Shown here: positions 9,613 to 16,505 of the stretch, piece by piece | Layout of the letters: every line of letters starts with the position of its first letter | Position numbering within the stretch: the first letter of the stretch is position 1 | Translations under genes and position numbers: made by a program | Notes under the pieces: model-generated | What the model was told of the DNA's origin: nothing | What the model saw: only the letters and a program-made list of their open reading frames with translations | The model's database searches: none | From: a virus | Direction: 5' to 3' (one strand) | IMG/VR virus record: IMGVR_UViG_3300045988_177740 | Length of the DNA: 16,505 nucleotides

Positions 9613-9694
9613 TAAAACAAGGAAACCTTTTGACCTGCCAAGGACAGGGCGGTTTACTCAACCGTGGCAACCCCTTTTTAAAAGGTTTCCCCGT
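9613..9694 (-). ncRNA. Structured RNA element of about 80 nt: either a 5' leader or a small RNA (candidate pRNA-like or regulatory RNA)
   Basis: It starts just after the promoter at 9701-9729. The outer helix pairs 9692-9680 with 9631-9619 (11 Watson-Crick plus 2 G:U pairs). Two inner helices pair 9670-9665 with 9640-9635, and 9664-9660 with 9654-9650. The element is followed by UUGUUUUAAU. Confidence 0.4.
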
Positions 9695-9700
9695 ATTTTC

Positions 9701-9729
9701 ATGATACAGCTTTTTTATCCGTATGTCAA
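9701..9729 (-). promoter_or_regulatory. Strong sigma-A-type promoter
   Basis: On the minus strand: TTGACA (9729-9724), a 17-nt spacer, then TATCAT (9706-9701). It lies 25 nt downstream of the ATPase stop. Confidence 0.65.
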
Positions 9730-9753: not shown

Positions 9754-10893
9754 CTATTTATAAAGATCAATCCCTAGTAACTCAACCGCCATATTCTTGC
9801 TGTCTAGATCGTCAAACCGCAAATATGCTTTGCGGTATGCGTCAACTAGATTTTCAAACAAATAATCATAGTGTTCCAACATAACCGTGTTTTGGGTATG
9901 ATCACCGTCCCGAAAAACCGCGACAAATTTACAAGACGGGTTATAGTTATGCGTAATATAGATGTACCCCTCTTCGTAATACTCATACACTCCATAACTT
10001 TTTCCACTATGCTCGATGGTGAACAGATACCGCGACCGTCCGGTCGGCTTTTGTACAAACACGGCATCATCAATCAACATCTGATCTCCAACACTCATGC
10101 TTTGCATATAGTGTCCGCCGCGGAATGCTTTCAAAGCAGTATTCTCCCACATGGCTTTACTGGCACTGTCATTGTGAGTAAACTCACACACAAAACCGCT
10201 CCCATGCAGCATTTTTGTTTCTTTCTGGTATCTCTTATGGATACCAAAAAATACAAAATAGGGATTGAGCAACGAAATATTATTGGATGACATTACCAGT
10301 TTAAACCATCGGGACTGACTTCCGTTTCCGCGGCTGATCGTCAATAGCAACGATTGCAGTTTTTCAGATTCCCCTTTTACGTATTGTCCGCTTTCCATGC
10401 TGAACTCGTCAAAAAACAAAAAGTAGATATCCCGAAAATACGGAGATAATTTTTTTACACTGTCCATCTTACTTCCAAAACTAAACGCGCATCCGAATGG
10501 CACGCCGTCCAGAAAATACCGCACAACATTTCCGTTTTTGTCCAGATTTTTATAGGTAATCACACTTCCTAATTTAGGATACATTCTTAGCATATCTTCG
10601 TACATTGCCGCCGCTCCCGTCATTTCCCCTTTCGTCCGGAAAATCCATCCGGTCTGCAATCCGTACTCTTTGCACAAGATACAGCTTGCCGCGGCGAACG
10701 CACTTGTCTTTCCGGCGCTACGGTTGGAACACGTAATTGCCACTCCAGCGAAATCCCCGTCCACGTCCGGCTCTGAAAACAACCGAATCGGATTGTAATA
10801 CTGAATCGCTTTCCCGTTATCGTCTACCGCTTCAAATTTCACATTATATTCAGCAAAAAGTTTTTCCCATTGAATATCGTTCCAAAAAATCAT
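9754..10893 (-). CDS. DNA packaging (encapsidation) ATPase, phi29 gp16-like
   Basis: 379 aa. It has a Walker A motif (SNRSAGKTSA) and a Walker B motif (IYFLFFDEF). The size and motif spacing fit gp16-type small-podovirus packaging ATPases. Confidence 0.85.
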   Translation of the reverse strand: MIFWNDIQWEKLFAEYNVKFEAVDDNGKAIQYYNPIRLFSEPDVDGDFAGVAITCSNRSAGKTSAFAAASCILCKEYGLQTGWIFRTKGEMTGAAAMYEDMLRMYPKLGSVITYKNLDKNGNVVRYFLDGVPFGCAFSFGSKMDSVKKLSPYFRDIYFLFFDEFSMESGQYVKGESEKLQSLLLTISRGNGSQSRWFKLVMSSNNISLLNPYFVFFGIHKRYQKETKMLHGSGFVCEFTHNDSASKAMWENTALKAFRGGHYMQSMSVGDQMLIDDAVFVQKPTGRSRYLFTIEHSGKSYGVYEYYEEGYIYITHNYNPSCKFVAVFRDGDHTQNTVMLEHYDYLFENLVDAYRKAYLRFDDLDSKNMAVELLGIDLYK

Positions 10894-10922
10894 TGTTTCA
10901 CGTGAAACATTTTTGTTTCACG
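10894..10922. promoter_or_regulatory. Perfect 16-bp palindrome TGTTTCACGTGAAACA (10894-10909) plus an extra half-site TGTTTCACG (10914-10922), abutting the ATPase start codon
   Basis: Read directly from the sequence. An identical 20-nt element recurs at 14300-14319. The only ribosome-binding site (GGAGGG, 10928-10923) lies 29 nt from the ATPase ATG. Confidence 0.5.
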
Positions 10923-10980
10923 CCCTCCTTTCTTCTTTTTTCCCGCTCCGCGTTACCACGGTTATCTGAATCTCTAACGT

Positions 10981-11043
10981 CCCGCCAGTTCCCCGCCAGC
11001 AAAACCGCAGACAATCTCACGTTTATCGCACGATAATCGCACG
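10981..11043. promoter_or_regulatory. Direct repeats phased at 11 bp: CCCGCCAG twice and ATC(G/T)CACG three times
   Basis: CCCGCCAG occurs at 10981-10988 and 10992-10999. ATCTCACG occurs at 11014-11021, and ATCGCACG at 11025-11032 and 11036-11043. Every spacing is exactly 11 nt. Confidence 0.45.
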
Positions 11044-11088
11044 TTTTGATTGCAGATGGACGGCGGGAAAGGCAGAGCTACGCTGGGT

Positions 11089-11123
11089 ATAAAAAGAGCT
11101 ACGCTGGAAAACGTAGCTCTTTT
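11089..11123 (-). terminator. Rho-independent terminator downstream of the 139-aa gene
   Basis: The minus-strand RNA reads AAAGAGCUACG-UUUUCCAG-CGUAGCUCUUU followed by UUAU. The stem is 11 bp with an 8-nt loop, and the U run reaches 5 when the stem Us are counted. Confidence 0.7.
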
Positions 11124-11141
11124 ACACGTATGGAATGAAGT

Positions 11142-11170
11142 TTTATAATACAAGATATAGTAACAATCAA
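11142..11170 (-). promoter_or_regulatory. Weak candidate promoter just upstream of the 11089-11123 terminator
   Basis: On the minus strand: TTGATT (11170-11165), a 17-nt spacer, then TATAAA (11147-11142). The context is AT-rich, so this could be a chance match. Confidence 0.25.
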
Positions 11171-11235
11171 CTACAGGTAACATAAATACTCAAGTTACCG
11201 TCCGCCAGTCGGGGCGCGTACCCAGTTCATGGTAA

Positions 11236-11655
11236 TTAAGCAAACGGATTAAATTTTTCCGTATCGCCGAATTTGTGTACATTTACCGCGGAAAGGTAAG
11301 CTGTGAATCCCTTGTCGCGGCGGAACTTGCTTTCTCCGATGGAAATGAACAGGTCTACTACTGCGCCTTTACCCAGTTCGGAAACACTGGAAACGGTTTC
11401 GCTCTCTACGCCGTCCTCGTAAAAGTCAACGCGGTAATTGGTCTGCGCTTTCACGTACAAACCAGCTTCGGAGGTTTCCTTTGCAGGAATCCATTTCGCT
11501 TCTGCGGCGGCATCTTCCCCGAACTCCTCGATGATCTTTTCAAAGATTACTTTCTGCTGATCGGCAGAGATAGAAGCGGAAAGAACGCTTTTGCCGTCTT
11601 CCTCTTTTGCGTATTTAACAGTTACGTTGTTTAATTTCATTTTAGCTTTGCTCAT
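11236..11655 (-). CDS. Hypothetical protein, possibly a ssDNA-binding protein (functional analogue of phi29 p5); the function is tentative
   Basis: 139 aa and acidic, with an AAAGGAGA ribosome-binding site. It sits in the replication block and is followed by its own strong terminator, which suggests abundant expression. The C-terminus (FGDTEKFNPFA) is aromatic. No diagnostic motif was recognised. Confidence 0.35.
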   Translation of the reverse strand: MSKAKMKLNNVTVKYAKEEDGKSVLSASISADQQKVIFEKIIEEFGEDAAAEAKWIPAKETSEAGLYVKAQTNYRVDFYEDGVESETVSSVSELGKGAVVDLFISIGESKFRRDKGFTAYLSAVNVHKFGDTEKFNPFA

Positions 11656-11757: not shown

Positions 11758-11991
11758 TTAGTCCAGTCTTTTTGCTTCTGCAAAAAACTGTTCATCCGGC
11801 ATTTCGTAGCGGGCGGATACGGTGTCGATTAAGACGCAAACGGAATCTTCCGGCAGTCCTGCCGAGATGACAGCATCTTTTTTGGCTTTCTGCGATTTTA
11901 ATTCTGAGTCAGAGTCAAAACAACCGAGTTCCTGTCTTGTTTTTCTGTCAATGACGGCGTACTTCCATTTTTCGATTTTTGTTCTAACCAT
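11758..11991 (-). CDS. Hypothetical protein (77 aa)
   Basis: AAAGGAGA ribosome-binding site 6 nt upstream of the ATG. It is the first gene after the 12036-12064 promoter. Confidence 0.65.
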   Translation of the reverse strand: MVRTKIEKWKYAVIDRKTRQELGCFDSDSELKSQKAKKDAVISAGLPEDSVCVLIDTVSARYEMPDEQFFAEAKRLD

Positions 11992-12035: not shown

Positions 12036-12064
12036 ATAATAGCACTGTTCTATCAGAATGTCAA
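12036..12064 (-). promoter_or_regulatory. Strong sigma-A-type promoter with an extended -10 element
   Basis: On the minus strand: TTGACA (12064-12059), a 17-nt spacer, then TATTAT (12041-12036). A TGc precedes the -10 box, giving TGCTATTATAAT. Confidence 0.65.
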
Positions 12065-12201: not shown

Positions 12202-14361
12202 CTATTCCGGTATCACTCCGTCTTGAGAGTTTACCAACACTTCATAGTATTCATTTGATACTCCTAAGGTATAAGTGGTATCAATAATTCCGATGTTACT
12301 AGCAGTTAAAATTTCTTCCCCGTTTACTTTGATGTAATGTGGTTTCGAGTTGTTGAAACAACTGATCGTACGTCCGACATTTTCCATCCGGCGGCAGAGC
12401 CGGAAATTATTACAGCATTTCAAGTTTTCCGCTCCTAGTTTTTTATTCATACCCGCAACCGTAGATGTAAAACGTACGGGATCTTTGCCAGATTTCGCCG
12501 CTTTTTTATCCCATTCAACGCCGCAATATTTTTTCGCGCCAAGGGTTTTAAATTGGATATACAGAGCATCCATATCCCATACGCCGAGAATGTATCGTTT
12601 TTCGCCTACATCGCAAAACGCAGGAATATCGTTTTCAATCGCACGTTTGGAAAGTAATTTGTTTTTGTCTTCAAATTCTGGTATATGTTCTTCCGGATGT
12701 AAAAATTTGATGCTATCCGTGTCGCAGTAAACAACATCCATTCCAACAACGTCCAGCATATCTTGTAGTTGTTTTCTCGCGTGGGCAGTAACGTAGATTC
12801 CCCACTGATAGTGCAAAAAGCTATTCTTACTTTCATAATACGTGTTCAGTGCTTTTTCCGCATCTGCTTTTTCCCGCGTCCATTCTCCCGTGGTTTGGTT
12901 CATCACCCATTCGTCCTGTAAAAGATCAGTAACACACATACCGAATGTACTGTTTAATTTATTCTTAGATTTCATGTACTCATAGACTTTATCGGGGTTT
13001 CCTTTTAAACGGCTTTTTGCTATAAAAAATGACATCATGGTTTCCCGCATACTGTCCGGTAACTTTCCACGCGCGGCTACGTAGCACTCAGACACGGTAA
13101 AAAAGTCGTATTCATACTGGTTTCTTATGATTTCCAAGTCAATCTCTGTCATGGCGATCTCGCAACAATCTATAGAGAGTACTCGTCCATTATCAATCAC
13201 ATACTCTTTTCCGTGCTTCTGACACTTTGAAAGAGGGATATATGGAACCGGAATGTTTTCTTTAATATGCAAATTATCAAATTGTACCCGCATGATAACG
13301 CAACGACTGCCACATAAGTTATCAAATTGATCTTGAGATGTAATCTCTACAGCCCTAAACGCACTCATGGGATAGTAACCCATTGCTATCTGCGCGGGGT
13401 AGCTGCTGGAAATATCCATGCTTCCCATTACGATTGCGTTTTCCCTTTTTTTCGCGGTGATCGTGTGTCCCGCGTGGATGCGGTTGGCGTGCGTGTTGCC
13501 GCCGCGGAACGCATCTTTGCAAAGACGGTATTGAGACAACGTTAGCGCAAGGTCAGTAAAAACATCGGGATAATAGTTTTTATCCGCTTGCATGGCACGG
13601 CGGAACTCGCGGCGGACGTAGCCAGTTGAAGTAAGGGGGATTTCCGCAAGGTTGTCCTCTTTACGCGCGGCACGGATGCATTCACATAAACCGCGAACAT
13701 CGTTATAGCAGTAACCTTGCTCACTTTCCATAAGTGGTGTGGTTGGTGTACGTAGTTTTTTGTAGTCATACGTATCAACCAATTTATAATGGATTACACC
13801 ATCACTGTTCTCACAGAATTTTGACAGCGACATATTGCTTAAAAAGTAAGAACACCGGAACTCGATACCGTACTTATAAGCGTAACATTTCATCACTTTA
13901 TGTGCGTCACGTGCGAATATTTCATCAAATTCAATGAAATCTTTCATAAATTGAAATTCATACGACAAGTTATGAACGTATACTACAGCACGTTTCGTAT
14001 CGGAAGTTTTCAAATACAGATGCAGTTTTTCGCAAAACGACAAAAACTCGTTCCATGTGCGGCCAAAACACACGGTGTCTTTCATACAAAACTGCCAGTG
14101 ATACAGAAAGGCGGTTCCTTTTACTACTTTTTCACCCGTTTTATTATAGCGTTCATAGTCCAATTTTTCCAACGTGGTTGTTTCAATATCAAACGCCATT
14201 TCCACGTCATAATAAACGATAGGATTTTTCTTTCTTCCACGCTTGCGGCATTCGCGCGCAGTCTGGAAAGATGAAAACGGAAAATCGTCAACGCTATAAA
14301 TTGTTTCACGTGAAACATTCTCTTTTCCGTCTTGCATAACAGGGACTTGTAATTCGTACAT
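12202..14361 (-). CDS. Family-B DNA polymerase of the protein-primed (phi29 gp2) type
   Basis: 719 aa. Exonuclease motifs: Exo I FDIETTT, Exo II VHNLSYEFQF, Exo III YCYNDV. Polymerase motifs: pre-motif A FRGGNTH, motif A MDISSSYPAQ, motif B KNKLNSTFGM, motif C VYCDTDSIKF, and KxY as GAKKY. An AGGTGA ribosome-binding site sits 5 nt upstream of the ATG. Confidence 0.97.
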   Translation of the reverse strand: MYELQVPVMQDGKENVSRETIYSVDDFPFSSFQTARECRKRGRKKNPIVYYDVEMAFDIETTTLEKLDYERYNKTGEKVVKGTAFLYHWQFCMKDTVCFGRTWNEFLSFCEKLHLYLKTSDTKRAVVYVHNLSYEFQFMKDFIEFDEIFARDAHKVMKCYAYKYGIEFRCSYFLSNMSLSKFCENSDGVIHYKLVDTYDYKKLRTPTTPLMESEQGYCYNDVRGLCECIRAARKEDNLAEIPLTSTGYVRREFRRAMQADKNYYPDVFTDLALTLSQYRLCKDAFRGGNTHANRIHAGHTITAKKRENAIVMGSMDISSSYPAQIAMGYYPMSAFRAVEITSQDQFDNLCGSRCVIMRVQFDNLHIKENIPVPYIPLSKCQKHGKEYVIDNGRVLSIDCCEIAMTEIDLEIIRNQYEYDFFTVSECYVAARGKLPDSMRETMMSFFIAKSRLKGNPDKVYEYMKSKNKLNSTFGMCVTDLLQDEWVMNQTTGEWTREKADAEKALNTYYESKNSFLHYQWGIYVTAHARKQLQDMLDVVGMDVVYCDTDSIKFLHPEEHIPEFEDKNKLLSKRAIENDIPAFCDVGEKRYILGVWDMDALYIQFKTLGAKKYCGVEWDKKAAKSGKDPVRFTSTVAGMNKKLGAENLKCCNNFRLCRRMENVGRTISCFNNSKPHYIKVNGEEILTASNIGIIDTTYTLGVSNEYYEVLVNSQDGVIPE
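14302..14317. promoter_or_regulatory. Second copy of the 16-bp palindrome TGTTTCACGTGAAACA, inside codons 15-20 of the polymerase ORF
   Basis: Read directly from the sequence. The 20-nt block 14300-14319 is identical to 10892-10911. Confidence 0.4.
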
Positions 14362-15995: not shown

Positions 15996-16023
15996 ACAAT
16001 ACCACTTTCTGGAAATATGTCAA
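15996..16023 (-). promoter_or_regulatory. Early sigma-A-type promoter at the inner edge of the right ITR
   Basis: On the minus strand: TTGACA (16023-16018), a 16-nt spacer, then TATTGT (16001-15996) preceded by TGg. Its architecture closely matches the promoter at 12036-12064 (TTGACA ... TG-n-TATT(A/G)TAAT). Confidence 0.55.
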
Positions 16024-16027
16024 TACT

Positions 16028-16049
16028 TTTCTAGAAAAATTTCTAGAAA
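16028..16049. promoter_or_regulatory. Two TTTCTAGAAA palindromes just upstream of the early promoter -35 box
   Basis: Copies at 16028-16037 and 16040-16049, 12 nt apart start to start. The nearer copy lies 5 nt upstream of the -35 box. Confidence 0.3.
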
Positions 16050-16284
16050 ATTTATTCCATTTAATATTACACACATATTCATTCTGCCCATTGTCCGCCA
16101 CCCACGGACACTTTAGCAGACTAAAGTGAGTCCCCTTTTCGGAAGTGTCCGCGACCCGCGGACAAACTGGCGGTTTCGCCCACTTTTCGGGCAAAATGAG
16201 TTAATAAAACAAAAGAATTGTGTGTGGATCGGGAGGAAAACGTGAATAATTGTGGAATTGTATAGACAATTAGACGAGACTAAC

Positions 16285-16313
16285 ACTTTAGTCGGGTAAA
16301 GCGTTTTTGTCAA
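16285..16313 (-). promoter_or_regulatory. Mirror copy of the ITR promoter, reading inward in the same direction as all genes
   Basis: On the minus strand: TTGACA (16313-16308), a 17-nt spacer, then TAAAGT (16290-16285). Confidence 0.4.
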
Positions 16314-16394
16314 GTTGGTAAAATGCATAAAAATTTCGGGCATATGTGTTGTAATAAGTATTAAAAAGTGAACAAATGCAATGAAATAGTTTGC

Positions 16395-16432
16395 AAAAGC
16401 GGTGTCTTTCCCTGGCGGACACCGCTTTTTTT
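16395..16432 (+). terminator. Mirror copy of the ITR terminator hairpin
   Basis: Same hairpin as 74-111. Here the U7 orientation is on the plus strand, facing outward. The inward (minus-strand) orientation has only U4. Confidence 0.35.
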
Positions 16433-16505
16433 GTGCAATGTGCTGTCCGCCGTACGCGGACAAAATTGGGAAAATGTCCGCGTGGGACGGACTATATATA
16501 TGTTT

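Follow-up and report, generated by a model that had tools for sequence, protein, structure and literature searches.

A phased 11-bp iteron array between the early terminator and the packaging ATPase gene of a phi29-like podovirus: a possible cis-acting control region

Introduction

Protein-primed replication and the switching of transcription by a viral histone-like protein have both been modelled on phage phi29, and all that is known of the mechanisms comes from a few Bacillus phages. Its A3 promoter has no -35 box and requires the activator p4 (PMC2731898). The p6 protein, a small and abundant early double-stranded DNA (dsDNA)-binding protein that also participates in the early-to-late switch, has a core of beta1-beta2-beta3-alpha1-beta4-alpha2 and wraps DNA as a right-handed superhelix, with monomers spaced in a fixed register of 12 bp in phi29 and 11 bp in GA-1 (PMC10899789). 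In Gram-positive phages, a terminator and activator-binding direct repeats are commonly found just before the packaging gene, and in the systems of the Ltr superfamily (RinA, ArpU, LtrC, Alt) these direct repeats are necessary and sufficient for activator binding (PMC3753634). Here, we describe a 342-nt gap (11235-10894) in the virus record IMGVR_UViG_3300045988_177740 from IMG/VR, a 16,505-nt sequence hereafter called the window, where an intrinsic terminator and an array of 11-bp direct repeats precede the gene of a Gp16-type DNA encapsidation ATPase.

A plasmid system offers another term of comparison: the parC site of R1 reportedly carries ten contiguous 11-bp direct repeats. There, the small protein ParR binds the iterons cooperatively, organises the DNA and regulates the adjacent promoter. 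A first-pass annotation of the window had noticed three sets of helically phased repeats in the gap and no consensus promoter, and had compared the region with phi29 A3 and p4, as a possible early-to-late switch. With a confidence just short of even, we read the gap as a cis-acting DNA control region, in which the phased iteron tract would seat an early multimeric dsDNA-binding protein gating transcription of the ATPase gene.

Results and discussion

Six in-phase 11-bp units follow the terminator

The elements first needed here are the following.
11088-11123, minus strand: intrinsic terminator with a 12-bp stem, an 8-nt loop and a U-run, identified by a perfect inverted repeat and covariation.
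10981-11046, no strand assigned: six in-phase 11-bp iterons, AAACGTGCGAT, TATCGTGCGAT, AAACGTGAGAT, TGTCTGCGGTT, TTGCTGGCGGG and GAACTGGCGGG, identified by lag-11 identity (0.56) and conservation.
10942-10980, minus strand: variable spacer from the array to the ribosome-binding site (RBS), evolving neutrally (nucleotide diversity, pi, 0.30-0.38; 14-22% gaps).
10923-10931, minus strand: Shine-Dalgarno (SD) region AAAGGAGGG, conserved (pi 0.15).

All three repeat sets of the first-pass annotation were recovered at the positions it had given. AGAGCTACGCTGG occurs exactly at 11074-11086 and 11095-11107, with a spacing of 21 nt, ATC(G/T)CACG (CGTG(C/A)GAT on the coding strand) at 11014, 11025 and 11036, and CCCGCCAG at 10981 and 10992. 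The CGTG(C/A)GAT triplet lies 22 nt from the CTGGCGGG pair, with a degenerate unit in the interval, and both 11-nt sets belong to a single in-phase array of six units (11046-10981). Its lag-11 self-identity was not reached at any lag from 4 to 20 in 5000 shuffles, and the array is the top 72-nt window for periodicity in the whole genome.

Every array that we found, here or in relatives, alternates 4-5 A/T-rich with 5-6 G/C-rich positions. The period of this alternation is 11.0-11.5 bp in five of the six arrays examined (window and other clades), and in the longest one, that of relative L175, the best period is clearly not 10.5 bp (power 4.2 versus 0.17). The earlier proposal that the sites lie on one face of the helix is thus only approximately right. 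A period of 11.0-11.5 bp instead of 10.5 bp suits a register imposed by a protein, and phased repeats are indeed the kind of site used by multimeric DNA-binding proteins, as had been suggested. The 11-12 bp periodicity that a p6-type tract requires is present in the DNA.

Two other explanations of the region were rejected. A 69-aa open reading frame (ORF) running across it (10974-11183) has indels in relatives that are not multiples of three and an ATG that is not conserved. The array units are not Spo0A boxes either: TGTCGAA occurs once in the genome, within coding sequence and below chance.

The array is conserved among close relatives and turns over by whole units

To follow selection on the gap we aligned it in 79 close relatives, whose ATPases are 93-99% identical, and took pi at the 4-fold synonymous sites of the ATPase gene (0.30) as the neutral reference. 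Diversity was 0.052 in array units 1-3 and 0.107 in units 5-6, compared with 0.057 in the terminator; the array core is thus sixfold less diverse than neutral sites. The spacer falls into several unrelated sequence classes of 28-70 nt. Since pi is 0.052-0.107 in the array and 0.30 in the spacer, the array core is, on this measure, under purifying selection and the expected site of a dedicated -10 is not. Whole extra units have been gained in relatives L032 and L068. An alignment of relatives, one of the checks that had been proposed for this region, shows it to be non-coding and constrained, with repeats that are conserved.

Clades at 69-84% ATPase identity keep the layout terminator, array, RBS and a period of 10-12 nt, with different unit sequences and with unit numbers from 5 to about 20 that change by whole units. 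In each genome of this range that has an array, the array is its most periodic stretch. Five AAACGGGAGTT units make up the array of L173 and that of L166, and the arrays of L174 and L177 have about eight units each. In L175, about twenty tandem 11-nt AGTCAAACGGC units (1290-1500, lag-11 identity 0.95) lie between the terminator and the RBS/parS. Relatives at 46-49% ATPase identity have no array and their hairpin and T-run abut the RBS; in these, the ATPase gene must therefore be reached by terminator read-through.

No conserved sigma-A promoter lies between the terminator and the RBS

Promoters were searched with a weighted -35, -10 and TG position weight matrix (PWM) over all 79 sequences, and the hits were mapped to alignment columns. 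No positionally conserved sigma-A promoter was found from terminator to RBS in these relatives. In the window nothing in this interval scored 6 or above, while the convincing promoters of the genome, at 12041, 9706, 16290, 16001 and 15040, scored 13-17. The lack of a good -35/-10 pair seen in the first-pass annotation thus holds in this interval. The only PWM match in the spacer, TTTGCT-17-TAACAT, is found in 31/79 relatives and is absent from this genome. Extended -10-like sequences (TGnGAT..) in units 1-3 were discarded as promoters, the last hexamer positions being variable and the sequences missing from other clades.

These results bear on the A3/p4 comparison. In its full form, it puts a -35-less late promoter just past the array, activated by a p4-like protein bound to the repeats, and makes this the sole early-to-late switch. 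The order terminator, repeats, first packaging gene and the missing -35/-10 pair agree with such a scheme, as do -10-like patches after the array (TAGATT or GATTAT in the commonest class, TAACAT in 31/79 relatives) and the precedent of A3 itself, p4-dependent without a -35 (PMC2731898). The gap resembles A3 in being a control region where the early and late modules meet and in having no -35 box; the features specific to p4 are absent. No homologs of p4, p5 or RinA/ArpU were detected among the phage's proteins, and tblastn of phi29 p4 against the window gave only chance matches (best E 0.073, in the fibre gene), with the caveat that a fast-evolving p4 could escape sequence searches. The p4-type inverted repeat (CTTTTT-N15-AAAATG) does not occur within 10894-11235 even with up to two mismatches. 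A3 also has a good -10 and faces divergent early promoters. In the window all genes lie on one strand, without divergent early promoters, and no positionally conserved -10 was found in the spacer meant to hold it, which is neutral in sequence and length (pi 0.30, 22% gaps), and only ~28 nt separate array from SD in the short-spacer relatives. The idea of a single switch is weakened by a near-consensus promoter downstream of the ATPase gene (TTGACA-17-TATCAT, 9729-9701), which the lysis and structural genes have for themselves, and weakened further by the sister clade at 46-49% ATPase identity, which lacks the array. Altogether, the first-pass interpretation is borne out only in part, and we consider the full A3/p4 scheme unlikely.

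The layout can also be compared with the Ltr superfamily. In both cases the intergenic region before the packaging gene has a terminator that blocks read-through and lineage-specific direct repeats (PMC3753634), and this arrangement, a terminator between the upstream and packaging genes with clade-specific repeats in the same gap, is present here. In contrast, Ltr repeats come as 2-4 copies of ~7 nt after the activator gene and before the terminator, whereas 6-20 contiguous 11-bp units follow the terminator here. No Ltr-family protein is found either: the 139-aa and 77-aa proteins encoded upstream have no Pfam, NCBIfam or PHROG match to Ltr families.

The terminator and the elements before it

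Upstream of the array, the gap contains the following.
11198-11212, minus strand: conserved block CCGACTGGCGGACGG with an extra ACTGGCGG copy and a GCGGAC half-site (pi 0.14, versus 0.30 for neutral sites).
11137-11170, minus strand: weak promoter-like TTGATT-17-TATAAA (11170-11142) overlapping an extended -10, TGTTACTAT, upstream of the terminator.
11124-11133, minus strand: nearly invariant box CCATACGTGT (pi 0.015), directly ahead of the terminator stem.
11074-11086, minus strand: 13-mer duplicate reading CCAGCGTAGCTCT on this strand, 21 nt past the terminator 3' arm and exact here (pi 0.17).
11047-11073, minus strand: C-rich block with loosely periodic TCTGC-type motifs, running into the array (pi 0.18).

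The terminator of the first-pass annotation is genuine. Its perfect arms (11092-11103 and 11112-11123), one of which holds the second AGAGCTACGCTGG copy, fold at -22.2 kcal/mol (z -5.2). When 15 diverse sequences were folded to a consensus, five stem pairs carried compensatory changes. The stem has an A-tract on its 5' side, so that the terminator is potentially bidirectional. A terminator precedes the ATPase gene in every clade, including the hairpin and T-run of the distant one. The box ahead of it has counterparts in clades at 69-72% identity (CCATACATGC and CCATACAGC).

These elements could be assembled into a control of the lambda Q type, in which the weak upstream promoter (TTGATT...TATAAA) gives an RNA of ~45 nt that ends at the terminator unless a phage antiterminator intervenes, the array being accessory. 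The presence of the terminator in every clade, the conserved promoter-like block TTGATTGTTACTATATCTTGT (pi 0.10) and the nearly invariant box between this block and the terminator all speak for it. TTGATT-17-TATAAA and TGTTACTAT score 9.1 and 7.0, and are present in 28/79 and 52/79 relatives, respectively. However, the -10 area upstream of the terminator varies more than any other part of the gap (pi 0.42, compared with 0.10 for the block), and about half of the relatives have a poor version of it. The genome has no recognisable antiterminator gene, and selection on the array would be left unexplained. We judge this alternative very unlikely.

On the plus strand, TTTACA-17-TATAAT (11121-11149) is a very good promoter-like site pointing away from the ATPase gene. 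It was rejected as a promoter: it results from one G-to-A change in this genome only, and most relatives have TATAAC. A plus-strand small RNA ending at a bidirectional terminator was likewise dropped for want of a conserved promoter.

The exact duplication of the 13-mer is particular to this genome, and most close relatives have a second copy with 1-2 mismatches. In many relatives the C-rich block reads CTCTGCCGCC CTCTGCCGTCC ATCTGCAAGC, and L068 has the 11-nt unit CTCTGCCGTCC three times. ACTGGCGG is present in five genome copies, including one per inverted terminal repeat (ITR), versus 0.22 expected, and the block CCGACTGGCGGACGG is kept across clades. The possibility that a single protein reads both terminal repeats and array was abandoned, as the ITRs of other clades lack the array motifs of those clades.

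The array is better explained as DNA than as RNA

Alternatively, the array could act as RNA, as part of the 5' leader of a read-through ATPase mRNA whose motifs bind an RNA-binding protein (possibly the ATPase) and set translation or stability. Since the distant clade transcribes the ATPase gene only through a terminator, read-through transcripts including the array are likely here too, and the orientation of the array relative to the gene is constant. Further support comes from motifs flanking the arrays of other clades. The 13-mer motif AGAGCTACGC recurs in L173 at 21-nt spacing, but downstream of the array and inverted; in L173 (5911-6080) the inverted 13-mer core flanks the array (GCGTAGC x2 ... 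GCTACGC x3), and in the L174 gap, upstream of 5294, a matched variant (GCGAAGC ... GCTTCGC) stands on either side. These inverted 7-mers, with their matched change, could form an enclosing long-range RNA stem, or could be a second protein site. The clade of the window has no downstream partner of the motif, which weakens the RNA explanation.

Within the array, predicted pairs are invariant or changed on one side only in the 15 diverse sequences. The absence of compensatory pairs in the array, versus five in the terminator, favours DNA over structured RNA. In addition, known RNA-repeat binders need no strict spacing of 10-12 nt, and no RNA-binding regulator was identified. An RNA role therefore appears quite unlikely to us. 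The gap was also considered as a prohead RNA (pRNA) gene and rejected, with no Rfam match, covariation limited to the terminator, and a better structured RNA downstream of the ATPase gene.

A candidate binder and a tentative mechanism

The nearest candidate for the array binder is encoded in the early module.
11758-11991, minus strand: 77-aa conserved early protein with 313 homologs, an AlphaFold2 (AF2) model and a weak p6-like profile match.

Its AF2 model (predicted local distance difference test score, pLDDT, 82) has the element order beta-beta-alpha-beta-alpha. A Foldseek search of the PDB gave nothing significant, and the highest TM-score in both normalisations was with phi29 p6 (8pw4; 0.44 and 0.42, E 1.2). 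In pairwise comparison with p6, BLASTP gave E 0.022 and hhalign E 0.014, aligning the beta4-alpha2 core. With broader profiles on both sides, hhalign of the 77-aa family against the p6 family reached 52.6% probability (E 1.4e-4) over 29 columns, again in the beta4-alpha2 core. The gene order is also suggestive: Enterococcus phage Athos has an annotated p6-like gene followed by a single-stranded DNA-binding protein (SSB) gene, a parallel to the 77-aa then 139-aa genes here. The small proteins of the window gave no match to Pfam, PHROG or NCBIfam DNA-binding families. On this model-based and profile evidence we tentatively take the 77-aa protein as a phi29 p6-like dsDNA-binding protein and as a candidate binder of the array.

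We infer protein binding to the array, with its binder and the direction of its effect, as follows. The terminator (11123-11088) would stop the early replication operon driven from the strong promoter near 12041. The 11-bp iteron tract (core 11046-10981, with related motifs on both sides) would then be a phased seat for an early multimeric dsDNA-binding protein, which on accumulating could coat or wrap the tract cooperatively in an 11-bp register. How much RNA polymerase reaches the ATPase gene may then depend on the resulting nucleoprotein complex. We slightly favour activation over blockage, given the late requirement for the ATPase, the stop that the terminator puts to early transcription and the lack of a -35. 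Among the proteins that can be named, the phage's own 77-aa product would be the most plausible binder.

Compared with p6 acting at the genome ends and at A2c-A2b-A3 of phi29 and GA-1, the likeness is in a small early protein that resembles p6 in size, in the order of its elements, in its neighbouring genes and, weakly, in profile comparison, and in a period of 11.0-11.5 bp to set beside registers of 12 and 11 bp (PMC10899789). The differences are that the array is internal and not at genome ends, that its iterons are explicit and base-conserved, that homology of the 77-aa protein is tentative and that no p4 partner is detectable.

Several results weigh against the mechanism proposed above. 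Phi29 p6 recognises DNA shape and bendability rather than sequence and uses no repeated motif; the base-by-base conservation of units 1-3 instead points to base-specific contacts. Phi29 p6 also nucleates at terminal repeats. The clade-specific array motifs are absent from the L173 and L174 terminal repeats, and the ITRs of the window hold other palindromes. The p6 assignment of the 77-aa protein is itself weak (Foldseek E 1.2, TM below 0.5, nothing from HMMER against the PDB), and the gene is also present in the distant array-less clade. That clade must reach its ATPase gene by read-through, which means that the design can do without the array. Finally, no conserved -10 lies downstream of the array.

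A more specific version would make the array a sequence-written nucleation tract for a p6-family histone-like protein, holding an 11-bp register and a right-handed wrap at the replication/packaging border, with array length, from 6 to about 20 units depending on the lineage, tuning the onset of ATPase expression. We regard this version as unlikely. If true, p6-type switching would for the first time be seen beyond the Bacillus phages, and for the first time tied to an explicit DNA code. In this clade a compact cis-element varies naturally in the sequence and number of its units, and a small protein encoded alongside is a candidate binder; should binding be real, the repeat and protein variants form a natural series for DNA reading and late-gene timing. 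Even without the p6 link, the array would mark a site of ATPase expression control in uncultured phages.

A parS-like palindrome abuts the ATPase start codon

Downstream of the spacer, the gap ends with a further conserved element, and the gene itself follows.
10894-10921, no strand assigned: parS-like palindrome TGTTTCACGTGAAACA (10894-10909) right next to the ATPase ATG (10893), with one more half-site at 10914-10921.
9754-10893, minus strand: Gp16-type DNA encapsidation ATPase, the gene behind the studied gap (Pfam PF05894, E 9e-28; PHROG terminase).

We take TGTTTCACGTGAAACA to be the ParB/Spo0J parS consensus. GTGAAACA occurs five times versus 0.88 expected. Another perfect copy of TGTTTCACGTGAAACA is found at 14302-14317, ~45 nt into the polymerase gene, and is translated there as NVSRET. 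Most relatives retain the two sites at these positions, and a third one is present close to the left end of L174. As phi29 uses parS sites for spore entrapment (PMC2731898), these sites may, by analogy, reflect such a strategy in a gut phage of spore-formers.

With parS next to it, the array itself might be a centromere-like site, comparable to R1 parC or to omega-binding heptad arrays: jointly with the parS, its iterons would serve segregation or spore entrapment by binding an adaptor. In favour of this, the 11-bp direct repeats are contiguous and variable in number, a consensus parS is 70 bp away and another is in the polymerase gene, and entrapment in phi29 relies on parS and Spo0J (PMC2731898). 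The window has no ParR/ParM-type genes, no omega-type or other recognisable adaptor and no partition motor gene, however, and its context is that of a lytic protein-primed podovirus. The fixed position of the array between terminator and RBS argues for gene control, and host ParB needs parS alone. We hold a centromere role to be highly improbable.

As a result of a 20-nt duplication (10894-10931), the SD and the ATPase AUG are separated by a mini-ORF (MFHVKQ*, ATGA overlap) and by a GUGAAACA...UGUUUCAC hairpin. The duplication is missing in 5/84 relatives, whose SD is 10 nt from the AUG. The upstream GTG start given in some database ATPase entries (versions of 388-410 aa) is probably wrong because the A-run length varies between 4 and 5.

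A structured RNA of ~75 nt (9618-9694, minus strand) is found after the 9701-9729 promoter, between the ATPase gene and the next gene. Its two ends form a closing helix of 12-15 bp, and 11/24 pairs are compensatory across clades. An invariant UUGCCA/UGGCAG pair could be intra- or intermolecular, and CCUGUCC covaries with GGACAGG at the RBS of the next gene. It could serve as a short analogue of pRNA or as a late-operon leader; it has no match to the Rfam pRNA model, and pRNA is known only in Bacillus phi29-like phages according to a 2024 review (PMC11476376). A tRNA-like element after this RNA in distant relatives was rejected, as ARAGORN found none.

Genome context and other repeats

The 16.5-kb window, with its 419-bp ITRs, represents the complete, or nearly complete, genome of a phi29-like podovirus, and all its genes are on the minus strand. 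In the direction of transcription, these are small early ORFs, a 194-aa protein (by position, probably the terminal protein), the protein-primed family B DNA polymerase, the 77-aa and 139-aa proteins, the gap, the ATPase, small proteins and two lysins, and then the phi29-type major capsid protein, tail knob, connector and fibre. The polymerase was the only window match in the comparison with phi29.
11236-11655, minus strand: 139-aa gene closing the early replication module, syntenic in all relatives.

Judged by position only, the 139-aa protein is probably the SSB; Pfam, NCBIfam and PHROG searches gave no family matches for it, and its identification by structure was dropped (AF2 model poor, pLDDT 53; PDB profile search empty). 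Whole-window megablast found no DNA-level match among GenBank phages. Public assemblies, IMG/VR among them, contain many relatives that apparently come from the human gut, and this gut clade is very abundant, with hundreds of near-identical contigs in public data.

Each ITR (1-419 and 16087-16505) contains four 17-bp palindromes GTCCG-N7-CGGAC. Most of the 20 copies of GCGGAC (3.5 expected) fall in the ITRs, and the ITRs of L173 and L174 conserve the motif; similar palindromes are found in relatives just upstream of the counterpart of the 9729 promoter. The 116-aa TTG ORFs within the ITRs are probably spurious. Tandem TTTCTAGAAAAA units with a palindromic core, TTCTAGAA, lie at 16028-16050 beside the early promoter near 16001, and L174 has a longer TTTCTAGAAAAA run (about 225-290) upstream of its early promoter; these units are possibly an early-promoter operator.

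In the 646-aa tail fibre gene, a 300-nt tandem repeat (1051-1879, 2.8 copies, 98% identity) gives three near-identical protein modules. At the fibre position of L174 (13817-15880), a 687-aa protein has Anti-Pycsar Apyc1 and metallo-beta-lactamase domains (precomputed Pfam), which points to an anti-defence nuclease joined to, or standing in for, part of the fibre.

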